Source: an uncultured Eubacteriales bacterium (GTDB taxonomy: Bacteria > Bacillota > Clostridia > TANB77 > RGIG9151). From it: a stretch of DNA of 13,786 nt. Numbering within the stretch: position 1 is the first letter of the stretch; every line of letters starts with the position of its first letter. Of this stretch, positions 745-13,786 are shown piece by piece. The position numbers were made by a program, and so were the translations under genes. Location of the stretch: positions 17,370 through 31,155 of the forward strand of contig CAZXFU010000005.1 in the NCBI GenBank assembly GCA_964640345.1, written 5' to 3'. The notes beneath the pieces were generated by a model. It searched no databases. It saw nothing but the letters and a program-made list of their open reading frames with translations, and was not told where the DNA came from.

Positions 745-768
745 TAGAGGAAAGGATTGGTAATTTTT

Positions 769-2142
769 ATGGAACCAATAATGTCTAAGCCAAGATATGT
801 TGCAAGAGATATGAAAAATTTAAAAGACATGTTGGAGCAAACAGTGGCACTTTACAATGACAAAGAGGCTTTTGTAAAAAAGGCTAAAGATGTATATGTA
901 GGTGTTAATTATAAGAAGTTTAAAGAAGATGTATTTGGCCTCGGAAACGAGCTCATGAAGAGAGGCGTGGTTCACGAGAGAGTTGTGTTATTAAGTGAGA
1001 ATAGATATGAATGGTGTTTAAGTTTTATGGCAACAGTTTGCGGAAACGGAATTGCAGTGCCTCTTTCTACTGATTTGAGCGACAGTGAGATTGTATCAAA
1101 GATAAATTGTGTTAAGGCTAAGTTTATAGTATTTTCTGAGAGGTATAGGTACTTAGTTAAGAGTATAAAACGTAAGTGCCCTACTTTAGAGTGTGTTATT
1201 GATATGGATACTATTATTGAAGACGTTGATAGTCTTTCTTTGCTTAGAATGATAGAGATAGGAAATAAAGACATTCAAAATGGAAATTCTGAGTTTGTAA
1301 AGTATGAGATTGACAGTGAAAGCGGAGCAGGTATTTTCTTTGGGGATACTATTGTTAAAGATAAACCTGTTTTGCTTTCACATAAAAATTTTATTTCGGC
1401 TATTACCGGATTTGTGTCTTTTTTACCGATTGTGTCTGACGACAAAACCGTTGTATTGCAGCCACTTAGTCGTGCATTCGTTTGTATAGATAATTTTTTG
1501 GCTTTAATTTCAAAAGGAGCTACTGTGAATTTTGCTGAAAGCGGAAAGCCTGTAAGCGAATTGCTTATTGACAGTAATCCTTCAATAATTTTTGCTTCAA
1601 AAGAGTTATTTTATGATATTTATAAAGGAATATGGTCAGACCTAGGGAATATGCCGAATATTCGTAAGACAAAGGTTTTGATGGTAATAAGTTTGATTTT
1701 AACAAAGCTTAATATCGATTTGAGGCGTAGGATTTTTAAGGATATATTAAAGAACTTTGGTAAAAACTTAAAGTTGATAGTTATATCTGGGAAGGATTTT
1801 AAAAACAGAATTTTAAGAGATTTTTCAATTTTTGGACTAAATACTGTTGAATGTTACGAGATGATAGAAGCTTCATCTGTGGTTTTTGTTAATGATAAAA
1901 AAGATTTCTTTTGGGATAATATGTTGGGAAAGCCGCTTCCGGGTGTTAAGACGTGCATACTTAATTCTAACGGCAAAGTGCCGGGGGAAATTTCGATATC
2001 TGGAGATAGTGTTATGCTAGGATATTATGACGATAAGAAAGCAACATCAAAGGTTATGAAAAATGACACCCTTTATACCGAGCAAACCGGATATACGGAC
2101 AAAAACGGTGTTTTTTACTTAATAAACAGAAAAAGAAAGTAA
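769..2142 (+). CDS. Acyl-CoA synthetase (ANL/AMP-binding) homologue with decayed catalytic motifs and no C-terminal subdomain
   Basis: I prefer the ATG at 769, which has an AGAGGAAAGGA RBS at 746-756. The track's start at 757 is a TTG overlapping that RBS. The protein is collinear with Firmicute long-chain acyl-CoA ligases (VVLLSENRYEWCLSFMATVCGNGIAVPL, LLSHKNF, PLPGVKTCI, VMLGYYDDKKATSKV). The P-loop position reads FFGDTIVKDKPV (1336-1371) instead of TSGTTGxPKGV. The GYGxTE position reads ECYEMIEAS (1849-1875). The YxTGD position reads YTEQTGY (2074-2094). The ORF stops at INRKRK* (the A8 hinge), TAA 2140-2142. Confidence 0.75.
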   Translation: MEPIMSKPRYVARDMKNLKDMLEQTVALYNDKEAFVKKAKDVYVGVNYKKFKEDVFGLGNELMKRGVVHERVVLLSENRYEWCLSFMATVCGNGIAVPLSTDLSDSEIVSKINCVKAKFIVFSERYRYLVKSIKRKCPTLECVIDMDTIIEDVDSLSLLRMIEIGNKDIQNGNSEFVKYEIDSESGAGIFFGDTIVKDKPVLLSHKNFISAITGFVSFLPIVSDDKTVVLQPLSRAFVCIDNFLALISKGATVNFAESGKPVSELLIDSNPSIIFASKELFYDIYKGIWSDLGNMPNIRKTKVLMVISLILTKLNIDLRRRIFKDILKNFGKNLKLIVISGKDFKNRILRDFSIFGLNTVECYEMIEASSVVFVNDKKDFFWDNMLGKPLPGVKTCILNSNGKVPGEISISGDSVMLGYYDDKKATSKVMKNDTLYTEQTGYTDKNGVFYLINRKRK

Positions 2143-2845: not shown

Positions 2846-4714
2846 ATGTACAAATTGTTGGATAGTATACAGAAACCGAGCGATATAAAAAGGTTTAACA
2901 ATATGGAATTAGAGGCTTTGGCTCAAGAGTTGCGTGACTTTATGCTAGAGAACATTTCAAAAACCGGTGGGCATGTTGCGTCAAATTTCGGAATTGTTGA
3001 GCTTACTTTGGCATTGTTTAAGATTTTTGATTTTGATAATGACAAGATTATTTTTGATGTTGGGCACCAGAGTTATCCATATAAAATTCTTACCGGAAGG
3101 AAAGATGATTTTCCTACTTTGAGGCAGTATAACGGTATTAGCGGATTTCCTAAGCGTGAAGAAAGTAAGTATGATTTTTTTGATACGGGGCATAGTAGTA
3201 ATTCGATTTCTGTTGGACTTGGAATGGCGAAAGCAAGAGATATCCAAATAAGGGATTACAATGTGATTTCTGTTATCGGAGACGGTGCTTTAACCGGCGG
3301 TATGGCATATGAGGGGTTAGATGCTCTTGGTTTTAGCAAGACAAAAATGATTATTATACTAAATGATAATCAAATGTCGATTTCACCTAACGTTGGAGGA
3401 TTGTCTGAGTATCTTAACATGGTTAGGATCAATAAAAGATACAATGAATTAAAAAAGAGTGTTCAAAATAGGTTGGATGAAAAAAATGTTATTTTGAAAT
3501 TGTTAAAGAAGATAAAAAACAGTATAAAGACGCTATTTGTTCCGTCTATGTTTTTTGACGATTTGGGTATTAGATATATTGGACCGATAGACGGTCATAA
3601 TATTTCAGAGATGTCTGAGATTTTCGAAAAAGCAAAAGAGCTTGATGAACCTGTTGTTATACATGTTGTGACTAAGAAGGGTAAAGGCTACAAGTTTGCG
3701 GAAGAGAATCCTAATAAGTTTCATGGGATTTCCCCTTTTAATCCTGAGAACGGAGAAGTTTTAAGAGAAAGTGACAAAGTTACATATTCTAAGGCGTTCG
3801 GAAATGCAATGGTAGATATTGCCAAGAATAACAAAAATGTTGTGGCTATAACTGCAGCCATGACGGAAGGAACAGGATTAAGCAGTTTCTCAAAGCTATA
3901 TCCTAATAGATTTTTTGATGTTGGAATTGCTGAACAGCATGCAGTTTCTTTTGCGGCAGGTCTTGCTACAGAAGGTCTTCAGCCTGTTTTTGCGGTTTAT
4001 TCTACATTCTTGCAAAGGGGTTTTGACCAAGTTATGCAAGATGTTTGTATGCAAAATTTGCCTGTTGTTTTTATGCTAGATAGAGCAGGACTTGTTGGAA
4101 ATGATGGAGAGACACATCAAGGTGTTTTTGATATTTCTTATCTTTCTATGATACCTAATTTGACTATTTTAGCTCCAAAGTGTGCGGACGAAATGGAAAT
4201 ACTTTTAAAGTATGCTCTTTCATTAAAGAAACCTGTTGCTATAAGGTATCCAAGGGGGGGAGATGATAGTTCCCTTGGGTTAAAGCCAATTGTTAGAGTT
4301 GAACAGGGGAAATGGGAGATCTTATCTAAGGGAGAGAGGGTTGCTTTAATTGCAACCGGTAAAATGGTTGGTAAGGCTATGGCATCAAAGAAAATATTAG
4401 AAGAAATCGGCATAAATCCTATGATTATAAATGCTACTTTTATAAAACCGCTTGATGTTGCTTTAATAAAGCGTTTAATTAGGGAGAAATATAATATTAT
4501 AACTTTGGAAGATAATGTTGCTATTGGCGGTTTTGGAAGTTTAGTTTTAAAAGTGCTTTCTAATGCAAGATATAAAGGAAGTTTCAGAATGATGGCTTTT
4601 AAGGATAGGTTTATTTCACAGGGGAGTGTGGAAGAGCTTATGAAACAGGAAAAAATGAGTGTGGAAGAAATTGTTAAAATTACTAAAAAACTTTATAATT
4701 CTAAGAAAGCTTAG
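2846..4714 (+). CDS. dxs: 1-deoxy-D-xylulose-5-phosphate synthase
   Basis: The 622-aa protein has the DXS-typical N-terminus (LLDSIQKPSDIKRFNNMELEALAQELRDF) and GHQSYPYKILTGR. It carries the thiamine-diphosphate motif GDGALTGGMAYEGL...NDN, plus the transketolase-like pyrimidine-binding block (FDVGIAEQHAV) and C-terminal domain. Confidence 0.95.
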   Translation: MYKLLDSIQKPSDIKRFNNMELEALAQELRDFMLENISKTGGHVASNFGIVELTLALFKIFDFDNDKIIFDVGHQSYPYKILTGRKDDFPTLRQYNGISGFPKREESKYDFFDTGHSSNSISVGLGMAKARDIQIRDYNVISVIGDGALTGGMAYEGLDALGFSKTKMIIILNDNQMSISPNVGGLSEYLNMVRINKRYNELKKSVQNRLDEKNVILKLLKKIKNSIKTLFVPSMFFDDLGIRYIGPIDGHNISEMSEIFEKAKELDEPVVIHVVTKKGKGYKFAEENPNKFHGISPFNPENGEVLRESDKVTYSKAFGNAMVDIAKNNKNVVAITAAMTEGTGLSSFSKLYPNRFFDVGIAEQHAVSFAAGLATEGLQPVFAVYSTFLQRGFDQVMQDVCMQNLPVVFMLDRAGLVGNDGETHQGVFDISYLSMIPNLTILAPKCADEMEILLKYALSLKKPVAIRYPRGGDDSSLGLKPIVRVEQGKWEILSKGERVALIATGKMVGKAMASKKILEEIGINPMIINATFIKPLDVALIKRLIREKYNIITLEDNVAIGGFGSLVLKVLSNARYKGSFRMMAFKDRFISQGSVEELMKQEKMSVEEIVKITKKLYNSKKA

Positions 4715-4739
4715 ATGGTTCTAGTGCAATGTTTTTGCT

Positions 4740-5882
4740 TTATTTTAACGCCGGACGAGTCGGATCTATTACTTTTTCTGCATCAAAGTAATTTTCTGTT
4801 AAATACTCTTTTCTCTTGAATAAGTTGTATCCGTCTAGGTTAAAGCGTGTCATTATTACGTTGTCTCCGTCATGTAGTGATAATTCCGGTGTTTTTTGGA
4901 CAGGACAGAAGATGTTAAACCCTTTATTTACTATATATCTGTATCTTTCGTCATCAGTTTTGAACCTAAATCCGAATGGGGAGATATAGATGTTTGTTTT
5001 TCCTGTTACTGGCTCAATATATTTTATCCAGCGTTCTGTGTCGTGCTTTAGCTGTTCCATTGTTACTGTGTAGTTTTTGAAGTATTGGTTATGTGTGTAA
5101 CTGTGGCATGCAAATCTCCAACCTGTTTCTTTTAGTTTGTTTGCTACTTCTGTTGCATCACTTATTGCTTTTTCAAGCTCTTTGCCGGTTAGGTCTGTTA
5201 TTCTATATCCTAATGCTCCTTGATATCCGGTTAATGCTAATATTCCTTTTGCACCATGGAATGAGAATTCGGGATGTTCTTTTACAAAGTCGTCTAATAT
5301 TGGCATTACGTCGGCTTCTCTTGAGATTATTGTCTCGCCGTTTGGAGTTACTATCTCGTTTGCAACTTCTCCATTTTTGTCTAATACGAGTTTTGTCGCA
5401 AATCCATCGGGTTTCATATAGTCATAGTAATTTACATCATCTATGGATAATACTAACGGTTTTCTTCCTTCAGGAAGATAGATGTCTTTTTTCTTTATCT
5501 TTGTAGGGTCTGCTGGGTCTTGCTCAATTAATTCTTCTATATCATATAACATGTATCCGCGGTCTAGTAATTCTGGTAACATTTTTTTGAATTCTGAGAC
5601 CGTTGTCATCCAATAGTTATAGCCGTTTGCTCGACTGTCGTTATCAAATGCTAAGTCGGTGTAAGCGATTAGGCTGTGAAAGAATACATGATGCACAGGT
5701 CCTTCATATTTTACCAGAATTTCGGGTTCTTCTTTTTCTTCCTGAGTGCTATCTGAAGTTTGAATGTTTGAATTTGGATTTTCACTTGCGAATGCACTTT
5801 CTTTTGATTTTTTTATGTACGTGATTAGTCCGACACATAATATAACTACTAAAGTTATTATAATCATTGCCCTTTTTTTCAT
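4740..5882 (-). CDS. Membrane-anchored polysaccharide deacetylase (NodB/CE4-like) family protein
   Basis: The start is taken at MKKRAMIIITLVVILCVGL (ATG 5882-5880), which has GGAGG at 5894-5890 and a 7-nt spacer. The track's longer start at 5924 has no RBS. There is an N-terminal signal/anchor helix, a DD-type motif (LVLSIDDVNYYD) and a His motif (ACHSYTHNQ) typical of CE4 deacetylases. The gene is convergent with dxs, with a 25-bp gap and no obvious hairpin. Confidence 0.75.
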   Translation of the reverse strand: MKKRAMIIITLVVILCVGLITYIKKSKESAFASENPNSNIQTSDSTQEEKEEPEILVKYEGPVHHVFFHSLIAYTDLAFDNDSRANGYNYWMTTVSEFKKMLPELLDRGYMLYDIEELIEQDPADPTKIKKKDIYLPEGRKPLVLSIDDVNYYDYMKPDGFATKLVLDKNGEVANEIVTPNGETIISREADVMPILDDFVKEHPEFSFHGAKGILALTGYQGALGYRITDLTGKELEKAISDATEVANKLKETGWRFACHSYTHNQYFKNYTVTMEQLKHDTERWIKYIEPVTGKTNIYISPFGFRFKTDDERYRYIVNKGFNIFCPVQKTPELSLHDGDNVIMTRFNLDGYNLFKRKEYLTENYFDAEKVIDPTRPALK

Positions 5883-6033
5883 TTTTATACCTCCATACTT
5901 AGATTTTTGCACAAAAATTGACAAATTTCAACAGGATTTTTTTGTTAATTGAAAAAGATTTTTAAATTGCTTGTACTTTGTGGTAAATTTTATATATACT
6001 TATATGCAGAGAGTTTTTGAACAGGGGGATAAG
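5883..6033. promoter_or_regulatory. Divergent intergenic region that should hold the promoters for the deacetylase gene (-) and mltG (+)
   Basis: This is a 151-bp AT-rich gap between two divergent starts. A + strand candidate is TTGCTT (5967-5972), N18, TATATA (5991-5996). A consensus TTGACA at 5918-5923 lacks a well-spaced -10. A - strand candidate is TTGAAA-N17-AAAAAT. None is compelling on its own. Confidence 0.3.
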
Positions 6034-7032
6034 ATGAATAGGAGAATTGTGGTTGTTTTGATTTTAGGTGTTGTTTTTTTTACCATATTTTTTGGTATAG
6101 TTACTGTTAAAAATATAGACACAGAAATGTTAAATAGCGAGAAGATTATTGTTATAAAGCCAAGTAGTGGTGCCAAGGCTATTGCAGGTGTTTTAAAAAA
6201 TAGCGGTGTTATAAAGAGCAAGTTTTTCTTTATAAATTACATTAAGAGGCAGGATGTTGCCACAAAATTAAAACCCGGTACTTATAAGTTTGGACCAGGT
6301 AAGGTTACATTTGATGATATATTAAATAAGTTACTTGAAGGCGAACAGGAAGAATATATAACGGTTACTATTCCGGAGGGGTATACTGTGGCTCAAATTG
6401 CAAAATTATTTGCAGATAAAGGGATTGTTACAGAGGAGAATTTTTTGAAGTATGCTTCAAGTTTAGATATTCCGTATGATTATATTCCAAAAGGCAGTGA
6501 TTATAGGCAACTTGAGGGATATTTATTCCCAGATACATATCAAATACCTGTTTCGTGGAATGAAGAGAAGATAGTTGATTTACTACTTTCTGAATTTGAT
6601 GCCCATTGGTCTGATGAATATGATAAGAGAGCTAAGGAACTTGGTTTTTCTGTTAATGAGATTGTGACTATTGCTTCGCTTATTGAACGTGAAGCTAAGG
6701 TTGACAAAGAGAGACCACTTATTTCTAGTGTTATTCACAACAGACTAAGAAAGGGGATGCTACTTCAAATTGATGCTACCGTTCAGTATTTGTTACCTGA
6801 GCAAAAGGGGAGACTCTTGTATAAGGATTTAGAGGTTGATTCTCCATATAATACTTATAAATATGAGGGTCTTCCGCCAACAGCAATTGCAGCACCGGGA
6901 ATATCATGTATAGAAGCAGCATTATATCCGGACGATACTGAGTATTATTATTATAGGGCAAAGGCTAGCGGAAATGGAGAACATTATTTTTCAAAGACGT
7001 TTGAGGAACATGTAAGTTATGCTGGCAAGTAG
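6034..7032 (+). CDS. mltG: Endolytic murein transglycosylase MltG (YceG-like family)
   Basis: I prefer the ATG at 6034 (MNRRIVVVLILGV, a TM anchor), which has AGGGGGA at 6023-6029. The track's start at 5971 has no RBS. YceG signatures are present: LASLIEREAKV (catalytic Glu region), QIDATVQY, and SPYNTYKYEGLPPTAIAAPG. Stop TAG at 7030-7032. Confidence 0.9.
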   Translation: MNRRIVVVLILGVVFFTIFFGIVTVKNIDTEMLNSEKIIVIKPSSGAKAIAGVLKNSGVIKSKFFFINYIKRQDVATKLKPGTYKFGPGKVTFDDILNKLLEGEQEEYITVTIPEGYTVAQIAKLFADKGIVTEENFLKYASSLDIPYDYIPKGSDYRQLEGYLFPDTYQIPVSWNEEKIVDLLLSEFDAHWSDEYDKRAKELGFSVNEIVTIASLIEREAKVDKERPLISSVIHNRLRKGMLLQIDATVQYLLPEQKGRLLYKDLEVDSPYNTYKYEGLPPTAIAAPGISCIEAALYPDDTEYYYYRAKASGNGEHYFSKTFEEHVSYAGK

Positions 7033-7095
7033 GTAAAATGGGGTTACTGAAAAAATAGTTAAAATTTATGTAGATTTTTGTCGAAATGATATATG

Positions 7096-7124
7096 TTGAA
7101 AAAAGATGAAAAATATAGTAAAAT
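7096..7124 (+). promoter_or_regulatory. Putative sigma-A promoter of the NRPS gene
   Basis: TTGAAA (7096-7101), a 17-nt spacer, then TAAAAT (7119-7124). It lies about 30 nt upstream of the ATG at 7157, and the RBS GGGAGGG is at 7144-7150. Motif match only. Confidence 0.45.
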
Positions 7125-7156
7125 ATTAATGGCAATAGTTTTTGGGAGGGATTACT

Positions 7157-8446
7157 ATGAAGAATCTATATGGTTTAACTTATTCGCAGAAAAATATATT
7201 GAATATAAGTAATTTGTATCCTAATTCGGCAATAAATTGTATTTCTGGTACTTTTAAGATTGTTGGAAGCGGTAACGCAGAAGCATTAAAAAGAGCCATA
7301 AATTTATATGTAAAAGATAACGACGGATTAAGGATAAGGATTACTAAAGATTCCGGCGAGTTTTTGCAATACATAGAAGATTATAGTGAAATTACTCTTG
7401 AAGAAATTGAATTTGATAATGAGAGAGAGCTTTATATATGGGAAGAGATAGAGAGTAAAACGACTATTCCTACGTTAGATAATGCTCTTTTTTATTTCAA
7501 AATTATAAAGATAAAGAATGGTGATATTGGTTATTTTGTAAAATGTAATCATATAATAAGTGACGCTTGGACTTTTGTTGTGCTTGTTAATGGAATTATG
7601 GAGTATTATAAGGAGATTGTTAGCGACAATAAAGTTATTGAGATTATAAAGCCGTCAATTGTTGAGCATATTGAGGCTGAAGAAGCTTATTTTAAGTCAG
7701 AAAGGTTTAAAAAAGATAAGAAGTATTGGGAAGATAATTTAGATGATATAAATCTAAAGACGATTTTGAAGAAGAGGAACAAGAACTCTATTGAAGCAAA
7801 GCGAACAAGTGTTGTTCTTCCTTCTAGGCTTAATGAGAAGATATATGAATACTGTAAGGAGAATAAGACTTCGCCGTTTAATTTGTTTGTTTCTGCTTTG
7901 GCTATGTATGTAAAGAGAGCGACTAATAAGGAAGATGTTATTATTGGTACTACGACTTTAAACAGAACTAATGCTAAGGAAAAAGAAATGTGTGGTATGT
8001 TTGTTAATACGTGTCCTATAAGAATTAAAATTAAGGATACGATGAATTTTAATGAGGTTGTAAAGTCACTAAATATTTCTTCTATGTCACTTCTTCGTCA
8101 TCAAAAATATCCTTATGAGCTTCTGACTGAAGATTTAAGAGAAAAGTATGATTTTAAAGATAATTTGTTCGATATAGTATTAAATTATCAGAATGCTAAG
8201 TTTGAGAGCAGTGACGAGACAGGCATTAATTATACTACTCGTTGGCATTTTAGCGGTTCTCAGGTTGAGTCATTAATAATAAATATAAATGATAGAGAAG
8301 ATTCAGGACAGCTTATTGTAAGTTATGATTACTTAAAGGATTGCTTTAATTTTAAGGAAATTGAGTACTTACATAAGCATATGATCGGTCTACTTTGGCA
8401 TGCTCTTGATAATGATGCTAAGAATATTGCGAATATTGAAATGTTA
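7157..8446 (+). other. NRPS condensation domain C1 (aa 1-430), atypical active site
   Basis: Core motifs occur in order: TYSQKNIL (C1), GLRIRI (C2), CNHIISDAWT (C3, 7544-7573; the consensus is HHxxxDG), CGMFVNTCPIR (C5, 7991-8023), HQKYPYE (C6, 8099-8119). The catalytic second His and the Asp are retained. The first His is Asn and the Gly is Ala. Confidence 0.85.
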
Positions 8447-11400
8447 CCGGAAGAGGAACAGGATAGGATTTTAACGAGGTTTAATAATGTTGAACTTAGT
8501 GATGAGTCAGCAGATATTCAGGTTGAAAAACGTAAAAACAGAAATGTTAAGGCGTATATTTTGGATTCAAACAGAGTGGCTTTACCTATAGGTATACCTG
8601 GAGATTTATATGTTAGCAGGAAGATAAGTGGTGACGAGATTGAAAATCCTTATGAACCAGGCAAAAAGTTATATAAGCTCGGGGTTATTGCAAGATGGTA
8701 TCCTAAGGGAGATATTGAGATATTAAATAGCGATGACGAGAGGCTTCTTGTACCTAAGTTTAATATGAAACGTCCTGTAAAGACTATTAATACTGTTTGG
8801 ACAGGAAGTTTTGTTACAGAACCTGTTAAACCTTATGTTAAGAGATTTGCCAGAGTTTTTAACTATAGAATAAAAATGGATTTTGCGGATTACAATCAAG
8901 TACTTCAAGAGTTAGTGGATAAAAGTAGTAAGATAAATACAAACAAAGACGGAATAAATGTAATTTTGTTAAGGCTTGAAGATTATATTAGAGATAATTC
9001 GGGTAGTGCTAGTGAGAAGATAGCTATAGTCGAGGAAACTACAAAAAGGCTTATTGATTTACTTGCTAAGGTTGAGAGTACTACGTTGTTTGGCATATTT
9101 AAGAAATCTAACAGAATTAGCGACGAAAGAATTCTTAATTCTATAGAAGAGAATAGTGAGAAAATACTTTCTGGTATTAAGTCCAATAAGAATATTTTTG
9201 AGTTAGATATTAAAAATATAGTGGCTGATTACTGTATAGAGAATAAATTTGATGATGAAAATGATAAAATTGCTCATATCCCTTATACTAAGGAGTTTTA
9301 TGCGGGGCTTTCGGCTGAAATTTGCAGAAAGATAGTTGCACTTACAAGAAAACCATACAAGGTTATTGTACTTGATTGCGATAATACTTTGTGGGGTGGT
9401 GTTTGTGGTGAAGTTGGTACGCATGGCATCGAAATTTCAGAAGGGTTTAAGTCGTTACAGAGATTTGTGCTTAATAAACAAAAAGAAGGTTTTTTACTTG
9501 CAATTGCAAGTAAAAACAATTTTGAAGATGTTCTTGATGTTTTTGATAATAATGATGATATGCTATTAAAGAGAGAGGACATTGTAAATTGGAAAGTAAA
9601 TTGGGATAATAAGGCTGATAATGTAAAGAAAATGGCGAAAGAACTTAATTTGGGCATAGATAGTTTTATTTTCTTAGATGACAATCCTATGGAATGTATG
9701 AATATGATGACCGCTATTCCTGAGGTGCTTACGTTGAATGTGCCATCTAAAGAGGCCATTCCTATGTTTTTAAGGCATTTATGGGCTACGGATAATTTGA
9801 TTGTTACTGCCGAGGACAGGGAAAGAAGTAAGAGATATATAGAAGAGCAAAAGAGAAAAGATGCTGAAAAAAGCGTTAATTCTCTTGGAGAGTTTATTAA
9901 GGAGTTAAATATAAAGGTTAGCATGAGGGAAATTGCCGAGTGTGAAGTGCCGCGTGCTTCACAAATGACACTTCGTACAAATCAGTTTAATCTTAGTACG
10001 ATAAGAAGAACTGAAAAGGATTTGGAGGAGCTTATAGGGGATGACTCGTATAAAGTTTTTGTAATTGAGGCAAATGACAAGTTTGGAGAGTATGGAATAA
10101 TCGGACTTGTAATTTTGAAAGTTGAAGATGTTATAAAGGTTGATACTTTCTTATTAAGTTGTAGAATTCTTGGCAGGAATATTGAAAACATTATATTAGA
10201 CGGGATCAAAATTTTTGCTGATGGTATTGGCAAGGAAAAGGCTGTGTTTGAGTACATAAAGTCTGAGAAAAATAAGCCTATACTAAATTTTTTAGACAAG
10301 ACACCATTTTTTTGTTCGAAGAAGGGAACAGATTCAGCTGTTTATGAACTGACTATGAAAGATGTCCCTCAGATTGAAGATGTGGAATTATTATATAATA
10401 GGGCTTTTGAAAAAAGGGCAGTATGCGAAGAAAAAATAGAAGTAAGTGCACCTGTTATAAAAGAGAGTGATACAAGTTCTAATAACGGCGAGCTTATTTT
10501 GGTTAACAACAAGCTTATAAAAAGTGCTACTAATAAGGAATATCTGGTTGTTTTAAGAGAATATACAGGTCAGAAGATTATTGACTCAATAGAGAATAAG
10601 ATTATAAAAGGTGAATACAGAAAGCCGACTACAGATACGGAAGTAAGACTTTGTCAGATTTGGTGTGATGCCTTAAAATTAAAGCAAGTCGGTATATCAA
10701 ATGATTTCTTTGAAATCGGTGGAGATTCGCTTTCCGCTGTTTTTGTGTTATCTCAAATATTAAAAGAATTTAAGGTTACACTTGGCCTTACAGATTTGTT
10801 CACTGCTAAAACTATAAGAGAGATTGCTGAACTTATTGACAAGAAAAAAGTTGAGGAATATCTCCCTATTCCGAATGTACCAAAAAGCGAGTACTATGAA
10901 TTGTCTTCTGCACAGTCAAGAATGTTCTTAATAAATCAGATTGAAGGCGGAAGTGCTAAATATAATGAAACTCAGATGCTAAGGGTAAAGGGAAATTTAG
11001 ATAAAGATAGGCTTGAAAATGCGTTTAAAGAGATAATAAAGAGGCATGAAATTTTAAGAACAGGATTTTTCATGGTAGATAATAAACCTGTTCAAAAAGT
11101 CTTTGATAGTGTGCCTTTTAAAATTAAATATTTAGATGCGGACGAAAGCGAATTAGATGAGATAAAGAACGAGTTTGTGAAGGCATTCAACTTGGGTAAT
11201 CCGCCTCTACTTAGAGTGCTTTTGGTTAGGATTAATGACCATGAACATATGATGTTTTTTGATATACACCATATTGTTATAGATGGCACGTCGTTTGGTA
11301 TTTTTATAAATGAAGTTTTAAGTTTATATGAAGGAAGAAAGCTTTGTGAGATTAAGAAGCAATATAAGGATTTTGCTGCTTGGCAGAATAATGAGGCTAA

Positions 11401-13786
11401 ATCCGAAACAATAAAAAAACAAGAAGATTTTTGGATGAAGCAGTTTGAAGATGAAATTCCTGTATTGAATCTTCCGACAGACTTTGCAAGACCGCTTGTT
11501 CCAAGTGGCAAAGGAAATAAAGTTTATTTTACAATCGATAAAAAGACTACAAAAAGTATAAAAAATATATGTCAAGAAACAGAAACGACGATGTTTATGT
11601 TTTTATTTGCAGTTTATAATGTTTTATTGCACAGATATTCTAATCAAGAAGATATTGTGGTTGGAATTCCTGTTGCGGGCAGAAATCATCCGGATACTGA
11701 AAATATGCTAGGTATGTTTATAAACACTCTTCCAATAAGAACTGCTCCAAAGGGAAACATGACTTTCGTTGAGTATTTACTGCAAGTAAAAGATGTGATT
11801 ATAAAGTGCTTAGAAAATCAAGAATTCCAATACGAGAAGATTGTTAATGTGTTAAATGTTACAAGAGATATGAGCAGAAATCCTTTGTTTGACGTTATGT
11901 TTTCGCTTCAAAACATGGACATTCCAAAGACAAAGACCAGTGATTTGGAATTTGAACAACTTGAGTTTTCAAATGGTACTTCAAAGCAAGATTTAAGTAT
12001 GTTTATTAGAGAAGTTGATGATAAACTGGAAATTGAGACTGAATTTAGTACGGATTTGTATAAGGCTGAGTCAATTAATCGTTTCAATGAGCATTATTCT
12101 AATTGCATTAAAGCAATTTTAAGCAAGCTTGACGCGAAGTTAGGCGAGTTTGATTTCTTAACTCGTGATGAAAAGAGTGTAATTAAGGCATTTAACAGTA
12201 CTTCATATGTATATAATGAAAGCTTAACGGTAAAAACACTTTTTGAAGAGCAGGTTAAAAAGACGCCAAATAATATTGCAATAGTTTTTGGCGGCGAAGA
12301 AATATCATATTTAGATTTAAACAAAAGGGCTAATAGGGTTGCAACAATATTACGTGAAAACGGTATAGGACCTAATAAATCTGTTGGTGTTATGCTTGAC
12401 AGATCGATAGAATTAATCGTTGCTTTGCTGGGTGTTGTTAAAGCGGGTGGATTTTATGTGCCGATAGATCCTGAGTATCCTCAAGAGAGAATTGAGTACA
12501 TATTAAATAACAGTAAGACAAATGTATTACTTACGCAAGAAAGATTAAAAGATAAGGTTGAATTTTCGGGTAATAAGTTATTGATGAGTAAGGAATTAGG
12601 TGTTGAAGATAAAAATCCTGAGTCGATAAACGATAAAGATGATTTGATTTATACAATTTATACGTCAGGTTCAACAGGAAATCCTAAAGGAGTAATGCTT
12701 ACTATAAAAAATATTGTTAACTTTATTTTTGGAGTGAAGAACAGAATTAAATTTACACAAGAAGAAGTTATACTTGGTATTACAACTGCATCCTTCGACA
12801 TTTTCGTACTTGAGACTTGGTTGCCGTTATGCTCCGGATTAAAGATTGCACTTACTTCTGCTTCAGAGCAGTTAAATGTAAGAAAAATAATAGAGGTTAT
12901 AAAGAATAATAGAGTTACAACGGTGCAAATGACCCCTTCAAGATTAAAACCTGTTTTGCAGTTTGGAAGCACGGATGATTTCGCTAATTTACAAAATGTA
13001 TTAGTAGGTGGGGAACCGCTTACTCCTGAAGTTTTGAAGTTGGCTCAGGAAAAGACAAGTGCGAAGATATACAATATGTATGGCCCTACTGAAACTGCGG
13101 TTTGGTCTTCAATAGCAGATATGACAGACACAGAAGAAATTACGATTGGTGAGCCTATTGCAAACACGACTTTCTACGTTTTGAATGATCAAGGAGCAAT
13201 TCAGCCATTTAATGTAGAAGGGGAATTGTGCATTGGCGGTAGCGGACTTTCCGCAGGTTATAAGGACAGAGAAGATTTAACGAAAGATAAGTTTATCGAT
13301 AATGCTTTGGTGGGAGAGAAGATTTATAAAACCGGAGATAAAGTGAAATTAACCGATGAAATAAAACTAAGATTTATTGGAAGAATTGATAACCAGATTA
13401 AGTTTAGAGGTTATAGAATTGAAGTCCAGGATATTGAAAGCAACATTACTAAATATAACGGAATAGATAAATGCGTGGTTGTGCTGAATAATAAAGGCGA
13501 TCAACTATGTGCATATTATGTGTCTGATTTTGAGATAGACGATAAGCTTATAAAGGAGTATTTGTTTAATAAATTACCAAATTATATGATACCCACATAT
13601 TTTGAAAGGTTAGAGGAATTTCCGTTTACTCCAAATGGCAAAATTGATAGGAAAAAATTGAAAGAGAAGGCTGACAATACTGAATTCGCTAATGAAAATT
13701 CTGAGATTGACGGTGAAATTCAAGAAAAACTTTGTAAATGTTTCCAAAAGGCTTTGGATATTCCAACAATAAATAAGAATGAGAAT
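7157..13786 (+). CDS. Nonribosomal peptide synthetase, N-terminal 2,210 aa (3' end outside the window); C - A relic - FkbH-like - T - C - A(Gly) - T...
   Basis: This ORF is not in the supplied track. The ATG at 7157 follows GGGAGGG with a 6-nt spacer. Manual translation of every codon from 7157 to 13786 found no stop, and 6,630 nt is exactly 2,210 codons. It contains two sets of condensation core motifs, one full adenylation motif set A1-A10, GGDSL carrier motifs and HAD-IIIC/FkbH motifs (see the domain entries). Confidence 0.95.
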   Translation, partial: MKNLYGLTYSQKNILNISNLYPNSAINCISGTFKIVGSGNAEALKRAINLYVKDNDGLRIRITKDSGEFLQYIEDYSEITLEEIEFDNERELYIWEEIESKTTIPTLDNALFYFKIIKIKNGDIGYFVKCNHIISDAWTFVVLVNGIMEYYKEIVSDNKVIEIIKPSIVEHIEAEEAYFKSERFKKDKKYWEDNLDDINLKTILKKRNKNSIEAKRTSVVLPSRLNEKIYEYCKENKTSPFNLFVSALAMYVKRATNKEDVIIGTTTLNRTNAKEKEMCGMFVNTCPIRIKIKDTMNFNEVVKSLNISSMSLLRHQKYPYELLTEDLREKYDFKDNLFDIVLNYQNAKFESSDETGINYTTRWHFSGSQVESLIININDREDSGQLIVSYDYLKDCFNFKEIEYLHKHMIGLLWHALDNDAKNIANIEMLPEEEQDRILTRFNNVELSDESADIQVEKRKNRNVKAYILDSNRVALPIGIPGDLYVSRKISGDEIENPYEPGKKLYKLGVIARWYPKGDIEILNSDDERLLVPKFNMKRPVKTINTVWTGSFVTEPVKPYVKRFARVFNYRIKMDFADYNQVLQELVDKSSKINTNKDGINVILLRLEDYIRDNSGSASEKIAIVEETTKRLIDLLAKVESTTLFGIFKKSNRISDERILNSIEENSEKILSGIKSNKNIFELDIKNIVADYCIENKFDDENDKIAHIPYTKEFYAGLSAEICRKIVALTRKPYKVIVLDCDNTLWGGVCGEVGTHGIEISEGFKSLQRFVLNKQKEGFLLAIASKNNFEDVLDVFDNNDDMLLKREDIVNWKVNWDNKADNVKKMAKELNLGIDSFIFLDDNPMECMNMMTAIPEVLTLNVPSKEAIPMFLRHLWATDNLIVTAEDRERSKRYIEEQKRKDAEKSVNSLGEFIKELNIKVSMREIAECEVPRASQMTLRTNQFNLSTIRRTEKDLEELIGDDSYKVFVIEANDKFGEYGIIGLVILKVEDVIKVDTFLLSCRILGRNIENIILDGIKIFADGIGKEKAVFEYIKSEKNKPILNFLDKTPFFCSKKGTDSAVYELTMKDVPQIEDVELLYNRAFEKRAVCEEKIEVSAPVIKESDTSSNNGELILVNNKLIKSATNKEYLVVLREYTGQKIIDSIENKIIKGEYRKPTTDTEVRLCQIWCDALKLKQVGISNDFFEIGGDSLSAVFVLSQILKEFKVTLGLTDLFTAKTIREIAELIDKKKVEEYLPIPNVPKSEYYELSSAQSRMFLINQIEGGSAKYNETQMLRVKGNLDKDRLENAFKEIIKRHEILRTGFFMVDNKPVQKVFDSVPFKIKYLDADESELDEIKNEFVKAFNLGNPPLLRVLLVRINDHEHMMFFDIHHIVIDGTSFGIFINEVLSLYEGRKLCEIKKQYKDFAAWQNNEAKSETIKKQEDFWMKQFEDEIPVLNLPTDFARPLVPSGKGNKVYFTIDKKTTKSIKNICQETETTMFMFLFAVYNVLLHRYSNQEDIVVGIPVAGRNHPDTENMLGMFINTLPIRTAPKGNMTFVEYLLQVKDVIIKCLENQEFQYEKIVNVLNVTRDMSRNPLFDVMFSLQNMDIPKTKTSDLEFEQLEFSNGTSKQDLSMFIREVDDKLEIETEFSTDLYKAESINRFNEHYSNCIKAILSKLDAKLGEFDFLTRDEKSVIKAFNSTSYVYNESLTVKTLFEEQVKKTPNNIAIVFGGEEISYLDLNKRANRVATILRENGIGPNKSVGVMLDRSIELIVALLGVVKAGGFYVPIDPEYPQERIEYILNNSKTNVLLTQERLKDKVEFSGNKLLMSKELGVEDKNPESINDKDDLIYTIYTSGSTGNPKGVMLTIKNIVNFIFGVKNRIKFTQEEVILGITTASFDIFVLETWLPLCSGLKIALTSASEQLNVRKIIEVIKNNRVTTVQMTPSRLKPVLQFGSTDDFANLQNVLVGGEPLTPEVLKLAQEKTSAKIYNMYGPTETAVWSSIADMTDTEEITIGEPIANTTFYVLNDQGAIQPFNVEGELCIGGSGLSAGYKDREDLTKDKFIDNALVGEKIYKTGDKVKLTDEIKLRFIGRIDNQIKFRGYRIEVQDIESNITKYNGIDKCVVVLNNKGDQLCAYYVSDFEIDDKLIKEYLFNKLPNYMIPTYFERLEEFPFTPNGKIDRKKLKEKADNTEFANENSEIDGEIQEKLCKCFQKALDIPTINKNEN
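8444..8740 (+). other. Vestigial adenylation-domain relic (aa 430-528)
   Basis: LPEEEQDRILTRFNN (8444-8488) is a typical C-A junction and A-domain leader. About 20 aa later comes AYILDSNRVALPIGIPGDLYV..., then KLYKLGVIARWYPKGDIEILNSDDE (8546-8740). This mirrors the xYVLD...P.G..GELxIGG / YxTGD / DG.IEflGR.D region (A6-A8). The roughly 330 aa carrying A1-A5 are absent, and GG, TGD and GRxD are mutated. Confidence 0.65.
8777..10369 (+). other. FkbH-like domain (HAD superfamily subfamily IIIC), aa 541-1071; predicted glyceryl (1,3-bisphosphoglycerate-derived) loading unit
   Basis: The HAD motifs are intact: motif I, VLDCDNTLWGGV (DCDNT at 9374-9388); motif II, LLAIASKNN; motif III Lys in NWDNKADNVKKMAKEL; motif IV, FIFLDDNPME (DD at 9677-9682). 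The N-terminal extension typical of FkbH-like proteins is present (WTGSFVTEPVKPYVK...ILLRLEDY). So is the C-terminal acyltransferase-like block, FGEYGIIGLV...FLLSCRILGRNIE (Cys at 10160-10162). Confidence 0.8.
10628..10849 (+). other. Thiolation / carrier domain T1 (aa 1158-1231)
   Basis: TDTEVRLCQIWCDALKLKQVGISNDFFEIGGDSLSAV, with the phosphopantetheine-attachment Ser at 10727-10729. The following helices LSQILKEFKVTLGLTDLF...IREIAELI fit the PCP/ACP fold pattern. Confidence 0.85.
10889..12151 (+). other. NRPS condensation domain C2 (aa 1245-1665), canonical
   Basis: YELSSAQSRMFLI (C1), RHEILRTGF (C2), DIHHIVIDGTS (C3; HHIVIDG at 11267-11287), YKDFAAWQ (C4), LGMFINTLPIR (C5), NQEFQYE (C6), RDMSRNPLFD (C7). 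Confidence 0.9.
12152..13660 (+). other. NRPS adenylation domain A2 (aa 1666-2168), predicted glycine-activating
   Basis: All core motifs are intact: ISYLDLNKRAN, VKAGGFYVPID, YTSGSTGNPKG (12659-12691), SFDIF, NMYGPTE, GELCIGGSGLSAGY, YKTGD, GRIDNQIKFRGYRIE, LPNYMIP, PNGKIDRKKL. Ten specificity residues were read by gap-free alignment to GrsA-PheA numbering and give D-I-L-Q-L-G-M-V-W-K. Confidence 0.9.
13703..13786 (+). other. Start of carrier domain T2 (truncated by the window edge)
   Basis: EIDGEIQEKLCKCFQKALDIPTINKNEN matches the first helix of a PCP (x-E-x-L-x-x-I/F-x-x-x-L...) just upstream of where FFxxGG(H/D)SL would be expected. The Ser motif itself lies beyond the window. Confidence 0.5.

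Follow-up and report, generated by a model that had tools for sequence, protein, structure and literature searches.

The 13,786-nucleotide stretch of DNA studied here (the window, meaning that stretch at its whole length) comes from an uncultured Eubacteriales bacterium (contig CAZXFU010000005.1) and carries a gene for a nonribosomal peptide synthetase (NRPS), whose open reading frame begins with the ATG at 7157 on the + strand, encodes 2210 aa and is still open at the window end. In order, the protein contains a condensation (C) domain, C1, a relic of an adenylation (A) domain (residues ~462-531), an FkbH unit (residues 545-1080), a thiolation or carrier (T) domain, T1, and a second module that reads C-A-(T); the coordinates of all features are collected in Table 1. 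The layout C-(A relic)-FkbH-T for module 1 had been put forward in a first-pass annotation made from the letters alone, and our profile scans bear it out, with nt 8777-10849 corresponding to aa 541-1231. A scan of GTDB genomes returned two orthologous loci, L001 from an uncultured Eubacteriales metagenome-assembled genome (MAG; 73% identity) and L002 from a Clostridia MAG (66% identity), whose complete proteins of 2518 and 2500 aa share the architecture C-relic-FkbH-T-C-A-T-TE, where TE is a thioesterase.

The FkbH unit

The FkbH model TIGR01686 matched aa 735-1049 with 284.2 bits (cutoff 146.65, E 1e-84), and the HAD-IIIC model TIGR01681 matched with 62.4 bits (cutoff 35.75), so that both scores lie over their cutoffs. 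The closest homologue of the unit in a word index was 40% identical, and an alignment of aa 541-1231 of the window with 35 homologues (36 sequences, 33-44% identity) showed D740, C741, D742, T744 and W746 (DCDNTLW), K819 and the pair D841-D842 to be invariant, together with the string S1001-C1002-R1003-x-L1005-G1006, while the SKN motif was at least 90% conserved. The N-terminal extension aligns in all 35 homologues and, with the HAD domain, matches the sequence of PDB entry 3slr (E 7e-31, 3slr residues 32-377). This alignment and the homology to 3slr substantiate the first reading of the unit as full length, with an N-terminal extension, all four HAD motifs and the block LSCRILGR.

An AlphaFold model of FkbH-T1 built from the 36-sequence alignment was confident (mean predicted local distance difference test, pLDDT, 87.5; predicted TM-score 0.76), and when it was compared with the PDB by Foldseek the N-terminal extension and HAD domain again found 3slr (E 1.8e-21, TM-score on target 0.76), whereas the C-terminal domain found GNAT acetyltransferases (probability 1.00, TM-score on target 0.6-0.76). 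Apart from 3slr, the N-terminal part of BF1531 of Bacteroides fragilis, no solved structure matches the N-terminal extension together with HAD. The entry covers a fragment of a protein that is uncharacterised, and it has neither a GNAT-like domain nor a carrier.

The first-pass annotation had named Cys1002 as the residue that would hold the glyceryl thioester. Its coordinates and its invariance (36/36 sequences) stand, and in the model it follows a beta strand and precedes an R-x-x-G-x-N loop and a helix. In the GNAT fold, the corresponding strand, loop and helix region binds the CoA or pantetheine cofactor, and the placement of Cys1002 thus fits a role as the thioester Cys. Sequence cannot choose, however, between this residue and Cys741 (nt 9377-9379), which stands between the two catalytic Asp of HAD motif I and is just as invariant (36/36). 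It is plausible, judging from conservation and position, that Cys1002 is the favoured thioester Cys, with Cys741 as the second candidate.

The conversion of 1,3-bisphosphoglycerate into a glyceryl-S-carrier is family chemistry reportedly published for OzmB and vioprolide. From its motifs and folds, we predict that the unit very probably loads glycerate onto T1 in cis from 1,3-bisphosphoglycerate. The two ideas put forward at first pass, that glycerate would be loaded without ATP and that its hydroxyl would then serve as an acceptor, gain support from the profile scores, the motif conservation and the predicted fold. It might be argued instead that FkbH is dead or acts on another substrate, and that T1 is loaded in trans, for example by the AMP-binding protein encoded at 757-2142, whose gene, 5 kb upstream, has a syntenic counterpart in L001. 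We find this scarcely credible, as the catalytic motifs of FkbH are all intact and invariant, while the AMP-binding protein has no C-terminal subdomain, resembles ligases weakly and is absent beside the NRPS in the relatives L003, L005 and L007. Two other outcomes of FkbH chemistry, the formation of a methoxymalonyl or hydroxymalonyl extender and that of a tetronate, were considered and set aside, as the loci are without a gene for an FkbK/FkbI-type dehydrogenase, an O-methyltransferase or a FabH-like enzyme.

The adenylation-domain relic

Between C1 and FkbH, the C-A linker (LPEEEQDRILTRFNN) is retained and is followed by what is left of an A domain. That this relic is real, as first proposed, is indicated by a profile of three orthologues, which found NRPS A domains in the PDB (E 1.3e-9; LgrA 1543-1624, GrsA 393-433), and by TIGR01733, which matches the relic at positions 299-381 of its 409 (E 3e-4 for the window, 1.9e-7 for L002). 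Significance was reached only by these two routes: Pfam gave no match to the relic at E up to 0.01, its sole match being one of 0.19 in one orthologue, and a pairwise BLASTP comparison of the relic with the A domain of module 2 (A2) gave E 0.30. When 1.84 billion representative proteins were searched with phmmer, many A domains of large NRPSs were matched through query positions 8-84.

The relic is without motifs A1-A5 (~330 residues) and without the entire C-terminal subdomain, and its A7 motif is degenerate, with YKLGV in place of YxTGD. Module 1 does not keep the core motifs A1-A10 of a functional adenylation domain, with the A7 Asp and the A10 Lys among them, A1-A5 and the C-terminal subdomain being unmatched, and the relic was modelled as a small all-beta element with pLDDT 62-73. 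Its identity to the two orthologues (79% and 68%) is nevertheless on par with that of catalytic domains. Most likely, therefore, it is a retained structural remnant of the A domain that was replaced, and not a catalyst, and we infer that the FkbH-T part was attached at the former A-domain hinge. Other C-FkbH-T proteins have ~15-30 residues from the end of C to the FkbH N-terminal extension and no relic. When a hidden Markov model of A6-A8 was run over the 130 residues before the N-terminal extension, the relic was found in 13/103 FkbH proteins, and because these form one clade the relic can be taken as a clade marker.

The condensation domain C1

C1, the first domain of the first module, begins at residue 3, preceded by neither a docking extension nor a carrier. 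Across the clade alignment, in which identity goes down to ~32% (range ~32-45%), the catalytic His132 and Asp136 never vary, and the identity of C1 to the orthologues (73% and 65%) is on par with that of the catalytic domains. Its nearest relatives are N-terminal C domains too, in NRPSs of Clostridia and Paenibacillus, and are followed by a complete A domain in P0125-P0127 and P0133 and by the relic in P0121 and P0122, which fits descent from an ordinary C-A-T start module. Since the acceptor on T1 would offer hydroxyls only, any condensation on the glyceryl unit must form an ester, and we favour the reading in which C1 forms it with an acyl group delivered in trans.

Several observations weigh against such an acylating role. 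In the window Asn takes the place of the first His of HHxxxDG, as Ser does in the two orthologues, and neither the window nor any locus of a relative has an acyl-activating enzyme or acyl carrier protein (ACP) adjoining the NRPS gene. A donor carrier in cis, be it a FAAL (fatty acyl-AMP ligase) with its ACP or a previous module, was not found in the window or the orthologous loci, where YceG lies upstream. Furthermore, starter, LCL and other C domains score alike against C1 by sequence and by fold (phmmer against the PDB, the clade profile against the PDB, and Foldseek), with the RzmA-Cs and CDA-C1 starter domains scoring about equal to LCL-type C domains. PDB 8f7f, tried as a reference for the SrfAA starter C domain, was dropped because it is the C domain of SrfA-C, and P0130 (lchAA according to one source) had no close PDB relative.

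The altered His and the lack, in every locus, of an acyl-activating enzyme or carrier next to C1 also speak for a C1 that is inert and survives from the ancestral C-A-T module as a structural or docking element, in which case glycerate would be a plain starter and what is released would be glyceroyl-glycine without an acyl group (C5H9NO5, 163.05 Da) or a lactone of the morpholine-2,5-dione type. FkbH loading modules without a C domain are, moreover, common (FkbH-T, FkbH-T-TE), and suomilide SuoB is another (PMC8609519). We nonetheless hold an inert C1 to be unlikely, as the domain is full length, its His132 and Asp136 have stayed invariant in a clade so diverged, and it is as conserved between orthologues as domains that are catalytic. 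Nor would a neighbouring gene be needed, since the starter C domains of lipoinitiation normally take acyl-CoA or the acyl-ACP of fatty acid synthase, with no dedicated neighbour gene.

C1 might also receive a peptidyl or polyketide chain from another synthetase, so that module 1 would not be a true start and glycerate would be an internal, ester-linked unit. This is the published norm in module 4 of cystomanamide and module 4 of CspD (PMC9581180; bioRxiv 10.1101/2020.08.10.245514), and in L011, a C-FkbH-T control without the relic, the gene directly follows another NRPS gene. Against it, the upstream genes in the relic-clade loci with upstream DNA are housekeeping genes or encode a phosphopantetheinyl transferase (PPTase), never an NRPS or a polyketide synthase, and the start of C1 at residue 3 leaves no room for a docking extension, the sole exception in the clade being P0209, with ~547 aa before C; we therefore give an internal position little probability.

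We regard as very improbable a further scenario, in which C1 would work iteratively, with glyceroyl-Gly on the second carrier (T2) as donor and a fresh glyceryl-S-T1 as acceptor, to give oligo-depsipeptides that TE would cyclise. An N-terminal C domain with no assigned donor, a hydroxy-acid acceptor and the TE of the orthologues would all suit it, and iterative depsipeptide synthetases, such as those of the enniatin and cereulide types, provide a precedent. However, single-module relatives (C-relic-FkbH-VOC-T-TE or -R, where R is a reductase, and C-relic-FkbH-T) keep the same C1, and an external acyl donor fits this better than iteration does. Acylation of the glyceryl unit by C1 from a donor in trans thus stays our preferred reading.

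T1, module 2 and the upstream genes

The linker between FkbH and T1 has the lowest identity between orthologues (41-59%), and in the model pLDDT is <50 at model residues 547-570, with helices at 578-603. Relatives L003 and L005 and the first NRPS of L006 hold a VOC/glyoxalase domain (methylmalonyl-CoA epimerase-like) between FkbH and the carrier (L003 3024-6389, product aa 448-571; L005 8001-13700, aa 1112-1223), in a place where the window protein has a linker of ~110 aa only. In module 2, alignment with a GrsA fragment gave the A2 specificity code DILQLGMVWK for each of the two orthologues and for the window, where position 331 falls in an alignment gap and was read as W by eye. Glycine codes read DILQLGxIWK, and A2 would accordingly have a glycine-like specificity; each of the ten reference residues was recovered from the GrsA fragment. 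Neither the TE nor the last part of T2 falls within the window, and TE is known from the orthologues, which counts against extending their release step to the window.

Upstream of the NRPS gene are five + strand genes and one - strand gene, encoding a MatE fragment, an AMP-binding protein, an M50-like peptidase, DXS, a polysaccharide deacetylase (-) and YceG. Of these, YceG, DXS and the M50-like gene are syntenic in the orthologues, and no further biosynthetic genes were found in L001 and L002. The promoter-like TTGAAA-17-TAAAAT was seen at one site, against 2.4 in shuffled sequence, and is not significant alone; an Rfam scan of the window gave no match.

The AMP-binding gene lies five genes and ~5 kb before the NRPS, and its product bears a weak resemblance to fatty-acid ligases. 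As an acyl supplier it is, as in the role of trans-loader, unlikely, having no C-terminal subdomain and not being conserved with the NRPS. The M50-like membrane peptidase gene (2146-2796) starts 4 nt after it, and the pair is syntenic in L001 (512-1900 and 1897-2547) and was not found adjoining the NRPS in more distant relatives. The product of the sole - strand gene (4740-5924) has 394 aa and matches polysaccharide deacetylases weakly; GC and AT skew show a local dip over the gene, which is syntenic in L001 (4444-5589, -).

Table 1. Features of the window, and kinase-regulator pairs downstream of the NRPS in loci of the relic clade
Feature	Nucleotides	Strand	Residues	Remarks
AMP-binding gene	757-2142	+		461 aa; whole core, no C-terminal subdomain
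Promoter-like TTGAAA-17-TAAAAT	7096-7124	+		upstream of NRPS gene; sequence reading
GGGAGG ribosome-binding site	~7143-7148	+		8 nt before ATG 7157
C1 condensation domain	7163-8470	+	3-438	PF00668, 250 bits
C1 motif NHIISDA	7547-7567	+	131-137	catalytic His132 and Asp136 kept
A-domain relic	8540-8749	+	462-531	motifs A6-A7-A8, up to the hinge
FkbH N-terminal extension	8789-9358	+	545-734	alpha/beta; 3slr match; pLDDT >90
HAD-IIIC phosphatase domain	9359-9775	+	735-873	TIGR01681
HAD motif I, DCDNT	9374-9388	+	740-744	
HAD motifs II-IV		+	785-787; 819; 841-842	SKN; K; DD
GNAT-like C-terminal FkbH domain	9809-10396	+	885-1080	Foldseek
LSCRILGR		+	1000-1007	Cys1002 at nt 10160-10162
FkbH-T1 linker	10397-10645	+	1081-1163	disordered stretch, then short conserved helices
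T1 carrier	10646-10837	+	1164-1227	PF00550, 54.6 bits
T1 motif GGDSL	10718-10732	+	1188-1192	phosphopantetheine Ser1191
C2 condensation domain	10889-12178	+	1245-1674	Pfam; canonical HHIVIDG
A2 adenylation domain	12242-13642	+	1696-2162	TIGR01733, 391 bits
T2, start	13700-13786	+		cut by window end; from translation
Kinase-regulator pair, L001	15759-18574			
Kinase-regulator pair, L002	15527-18313			
Kinase-regulator pair, L003	6430-9712			
Kinase-regulator pair, L005	13741-17318			
Kinase-regulator pair, L006, first	4679-7727			
Kinase-regulator pair, L006, second	11913-14972			
Kinase-regulator pair, L007	13630-17027			

The relic clade and its neighbourhood

The members of the relic clade are small NRPSs whose back ends vary. 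T-C-A-T-TE is found in L001, L002, P0153 and L007, and in the window as far as its end within T2; L004 has T-C-A-T-R, L003 has VOC-T-TE with an Sfp-type PPTase upstream, L005 has VOC-T-R, L008 has T-C-A-T-C, and P0157 consists of C-relic-FkbH-T alone. The Sfp-type PPTase gene adjoins the NRPS in L003 (286-825) and L008 (9745-10506) and is present in none of the window, L001 and L002. In L003 the NRPS frame is broken by a stop and restarts ~100 nt further on (2880-3030), and in L004 two gene calls within the NRPS overlap (2573-2616); these breaks, which are in or just after the relic and N-terminal extension, are either assembly errors or signs of pseudogenes.

Among the relic-clade loci with downstream DNA, 7/8 cassettes (in 7 loci, L006 holding two) have, on the same strand after the NRPS, a HisKA_7TM (PF16927) kinase and then a response regulator (Table 1). 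The kinases, 586-630 aa in length, are 34-75% identical over their full length, membrane part included. The regulators differ in output: some have HD-GYP, those of L006 have REC plus HATPase_c, and in L001 and L002 the type is unknown. After the NRPS of L008, which looks Gram-negative because DUF481 is present, there is no such pair, and L011 has ABC transporters instead. In L006 (1-14972) paralogous cassettes stand in tandem, their kinases 56% and their regulators 52% identical, a pattern that resembles diversifying signal/receptor pairs. Because the window ends inside the NRPS, the link to a kinase and regulator is known from its relatives only.

Discussion

In our view, the data are best accommodated by a two-module NRPS in which FkbH loads the glyceryl unit, C1 acylates it with a group supplied in trans, glycine is added and TE releases the product, a chain of events that, taken whole, we consider fairly probable. 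What the analysis shows is the identity of the domains, their intact motifs and folds, how the orthologues are built and the glycine-like code; the substrate, the order in which FkbH works, the source of the acyl group for C1 and the mode of release are what we infer. Module 1 would be the start module of a compact enzyme, C-(A relic)-FkbH-T-C-A-T-TE, in which FkbH would have replaced an A domain that activated an amino acid. The FkbH unit would capture 1,3-bisphosphoglycerate as an enzyme thioester (on Cys1002 by preference, with Cys741 as the alternative), its HAD domain, with Asp740 and Asp742 in catalysis, would strip the 3-phosphate, and the glyceryl group would be moved to the phosphopantetheine arm of T1. 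C1 would then esterify a glycerate hydroxyl with an acyl group taken from acyl-CoA or acyl-ACP, in a role akin to that of the ester-forming C domains of vioprolide and corramycin but in the starter position, and C2 would join the T1-bound (acyl)glyceryl donor to the glycine loaded by A2. Release by TE, as judged from the C-relic-FkbH-T-C-A(Gly code)-T-TE architecture of the orthologues, would free (O-acyl)glyceroyl-glycine or a lactone.

The first-pass annotation had taken the C-FkbH-T layout to be a module type not yet described, and this did not hold, as the layout has been published in at least five systems (cystomanamide, vioprolide, corramycin, CspD/clostyrylpyrone and foxicin). C-FkbH-T is named for cystomanamide and vioprolide, and in vioprolide an ester-bond-forming C domain joins a fatty acid to the glycerate (PMC8949500), a domain characterised in vitro (Auerbach 2018, as cited in PMC8609519); module 4 of cystomanamide is written (C-fkbH-PCP) (PMC9581180, citing Etzbach 2014); corramycin ComK is FAAL-ACP-C-HAD-T, with an architecture as in vioprolide (PMC10099666); CspD of Clostridium roseum has a C-F-ACP module proposed to add D-glycerate via an ester bond (bioRxiv 10.1101/2020.08.10.245514); and foxicin FoxBII ends in ...ACP-C-FkbH and is followed by a PCP-TE protein (PMC5318452). 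Suomilide SuoB is described as an FkbH loading module with no preceding C domain (PMC8609519). A survey of databases likewise counted other such modules, as ~12 of the best 120 FkbH homologue clusters also carry Condensation, the rest being mostly FkbH-T-TE or FkbH-T. The window has the order of this type, with C, FkbH and carrier in one polypeptide and the His and Asp of C kept.

The closest parallels are vioprolide and corramycin (Yan 2018; Auerbach 2018), where FkbH likewise replaces A within a C-x-T module near the start of the line, and where, as we propose for the window, glycerate on T is the acceptor of an ester-forming C domain and the C domain that follows hands the acyl-glyceryl unit on to an amino acid. 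There, however, FAAL-ACP is fused before C, whereas in the window C1 is the N-terminus and FAAL and ACP are not nearby; theirs are large myxobacterial lines, whereas ours is a two-module enzyme of ~2500 aa from low-GC Clostridia; and the window has the A6-A8 relic between C and FkbH, a comparison made with vioprolide and corramycin by their published description. Module 4 of cystomanamide and of CspD have the same three-domain order and the ester-linked glycerate that we propose here, and CspD places this layout already in Clostridium, but these modules are internal, with an upstream carrier in cis, and that of the window is in the starter position.

The FkbH unit of the window shares with FkbH, OzmB, Tmn16/Mad7 and ZmaN the TIGR01686 match, the N-terminal extension, HAD and C-terminal domains, the motifs and the expected chemistry, yet those enzymes act on a separate ACP and here the unit is fused in cis. 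Stand-alone FkbH types usually feed methoxymalonyl- or hydroxymalonyl-ACP or tetronates, together with dehydrogenases or a FabH-like enzyme, none of which is present here. Suomilide SuoB, dysinosin, the cyanopeptolin type and FkbH-T-TE proteins have, like the window, an FkbH-carrier fusion that gives a glycerate starter to an NRPS; in contrast to the window with its C1, all of these lack a preceding C domain, so that no condensation takes place on their glycerate hydroxyl on the assembly line. The module type is thus known, and what is new is a C domain in the starter position, the A6-A8 remnant, the compact enzyme of Clostridia and the recurrent kinase-regulator neighbours. In the literature searched, the relic as a clade marker, the carrier-less N-terminal C domain and the downstream seven-transmembrane (7TM) kinase with its regulator were not described.

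The relic also indicates how such a module arose: an ordinary C-A-T start module lost its A1-A5 motifs and its mobile subdomain, and the former hinge, now carrying FkbH, would be a natural junction for engineers who wish to exchange loading units.

The conserved gene order around the NRPSs of the clade suggests that the product may be a signal for the kinase or that the kinase may govern production. In systems such as CqsA/CqsS and LqsA/LqsS, the synthase gene likewise has genes for a response regulator and for a histidine kinase with several membrane passes as neighbours, and paralogous cassettes stand in tandem. The likeness of these systems to the relic-clade cassettes, seen in the relatives of the window, is an analogy of gene order only, with no sequence relationship, and our literature search returned no paper linking PF16927 kinases to NRPSs. 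One could go further and propose that the enzymes of the clade make a new class of glycerate-based acyl-depsipeptide signals, that the kinase and regulator are the cognate receptor pathway, with outputs that include HD-GYP cyclic di-GMP phosphodiesterases, and that the cassette diversifies by tandem duplication and by swaps of the back end (TE, R or an extra Gly module), a proposal that we put forward tentatively and consider doubtful in its entirety.

What the module itself offers is a further example of glycolytic glycerate entering a non-ribosomal product, here in low-GC anaerobes that are uncultured. Its neighbourhood has the larger potential: the conserved and sometimes duplicated order of synthase, 7TM kinase and regulator provides a testable case that these small enzymes make signalling molecules in Clostridia of the gut or rumen type.

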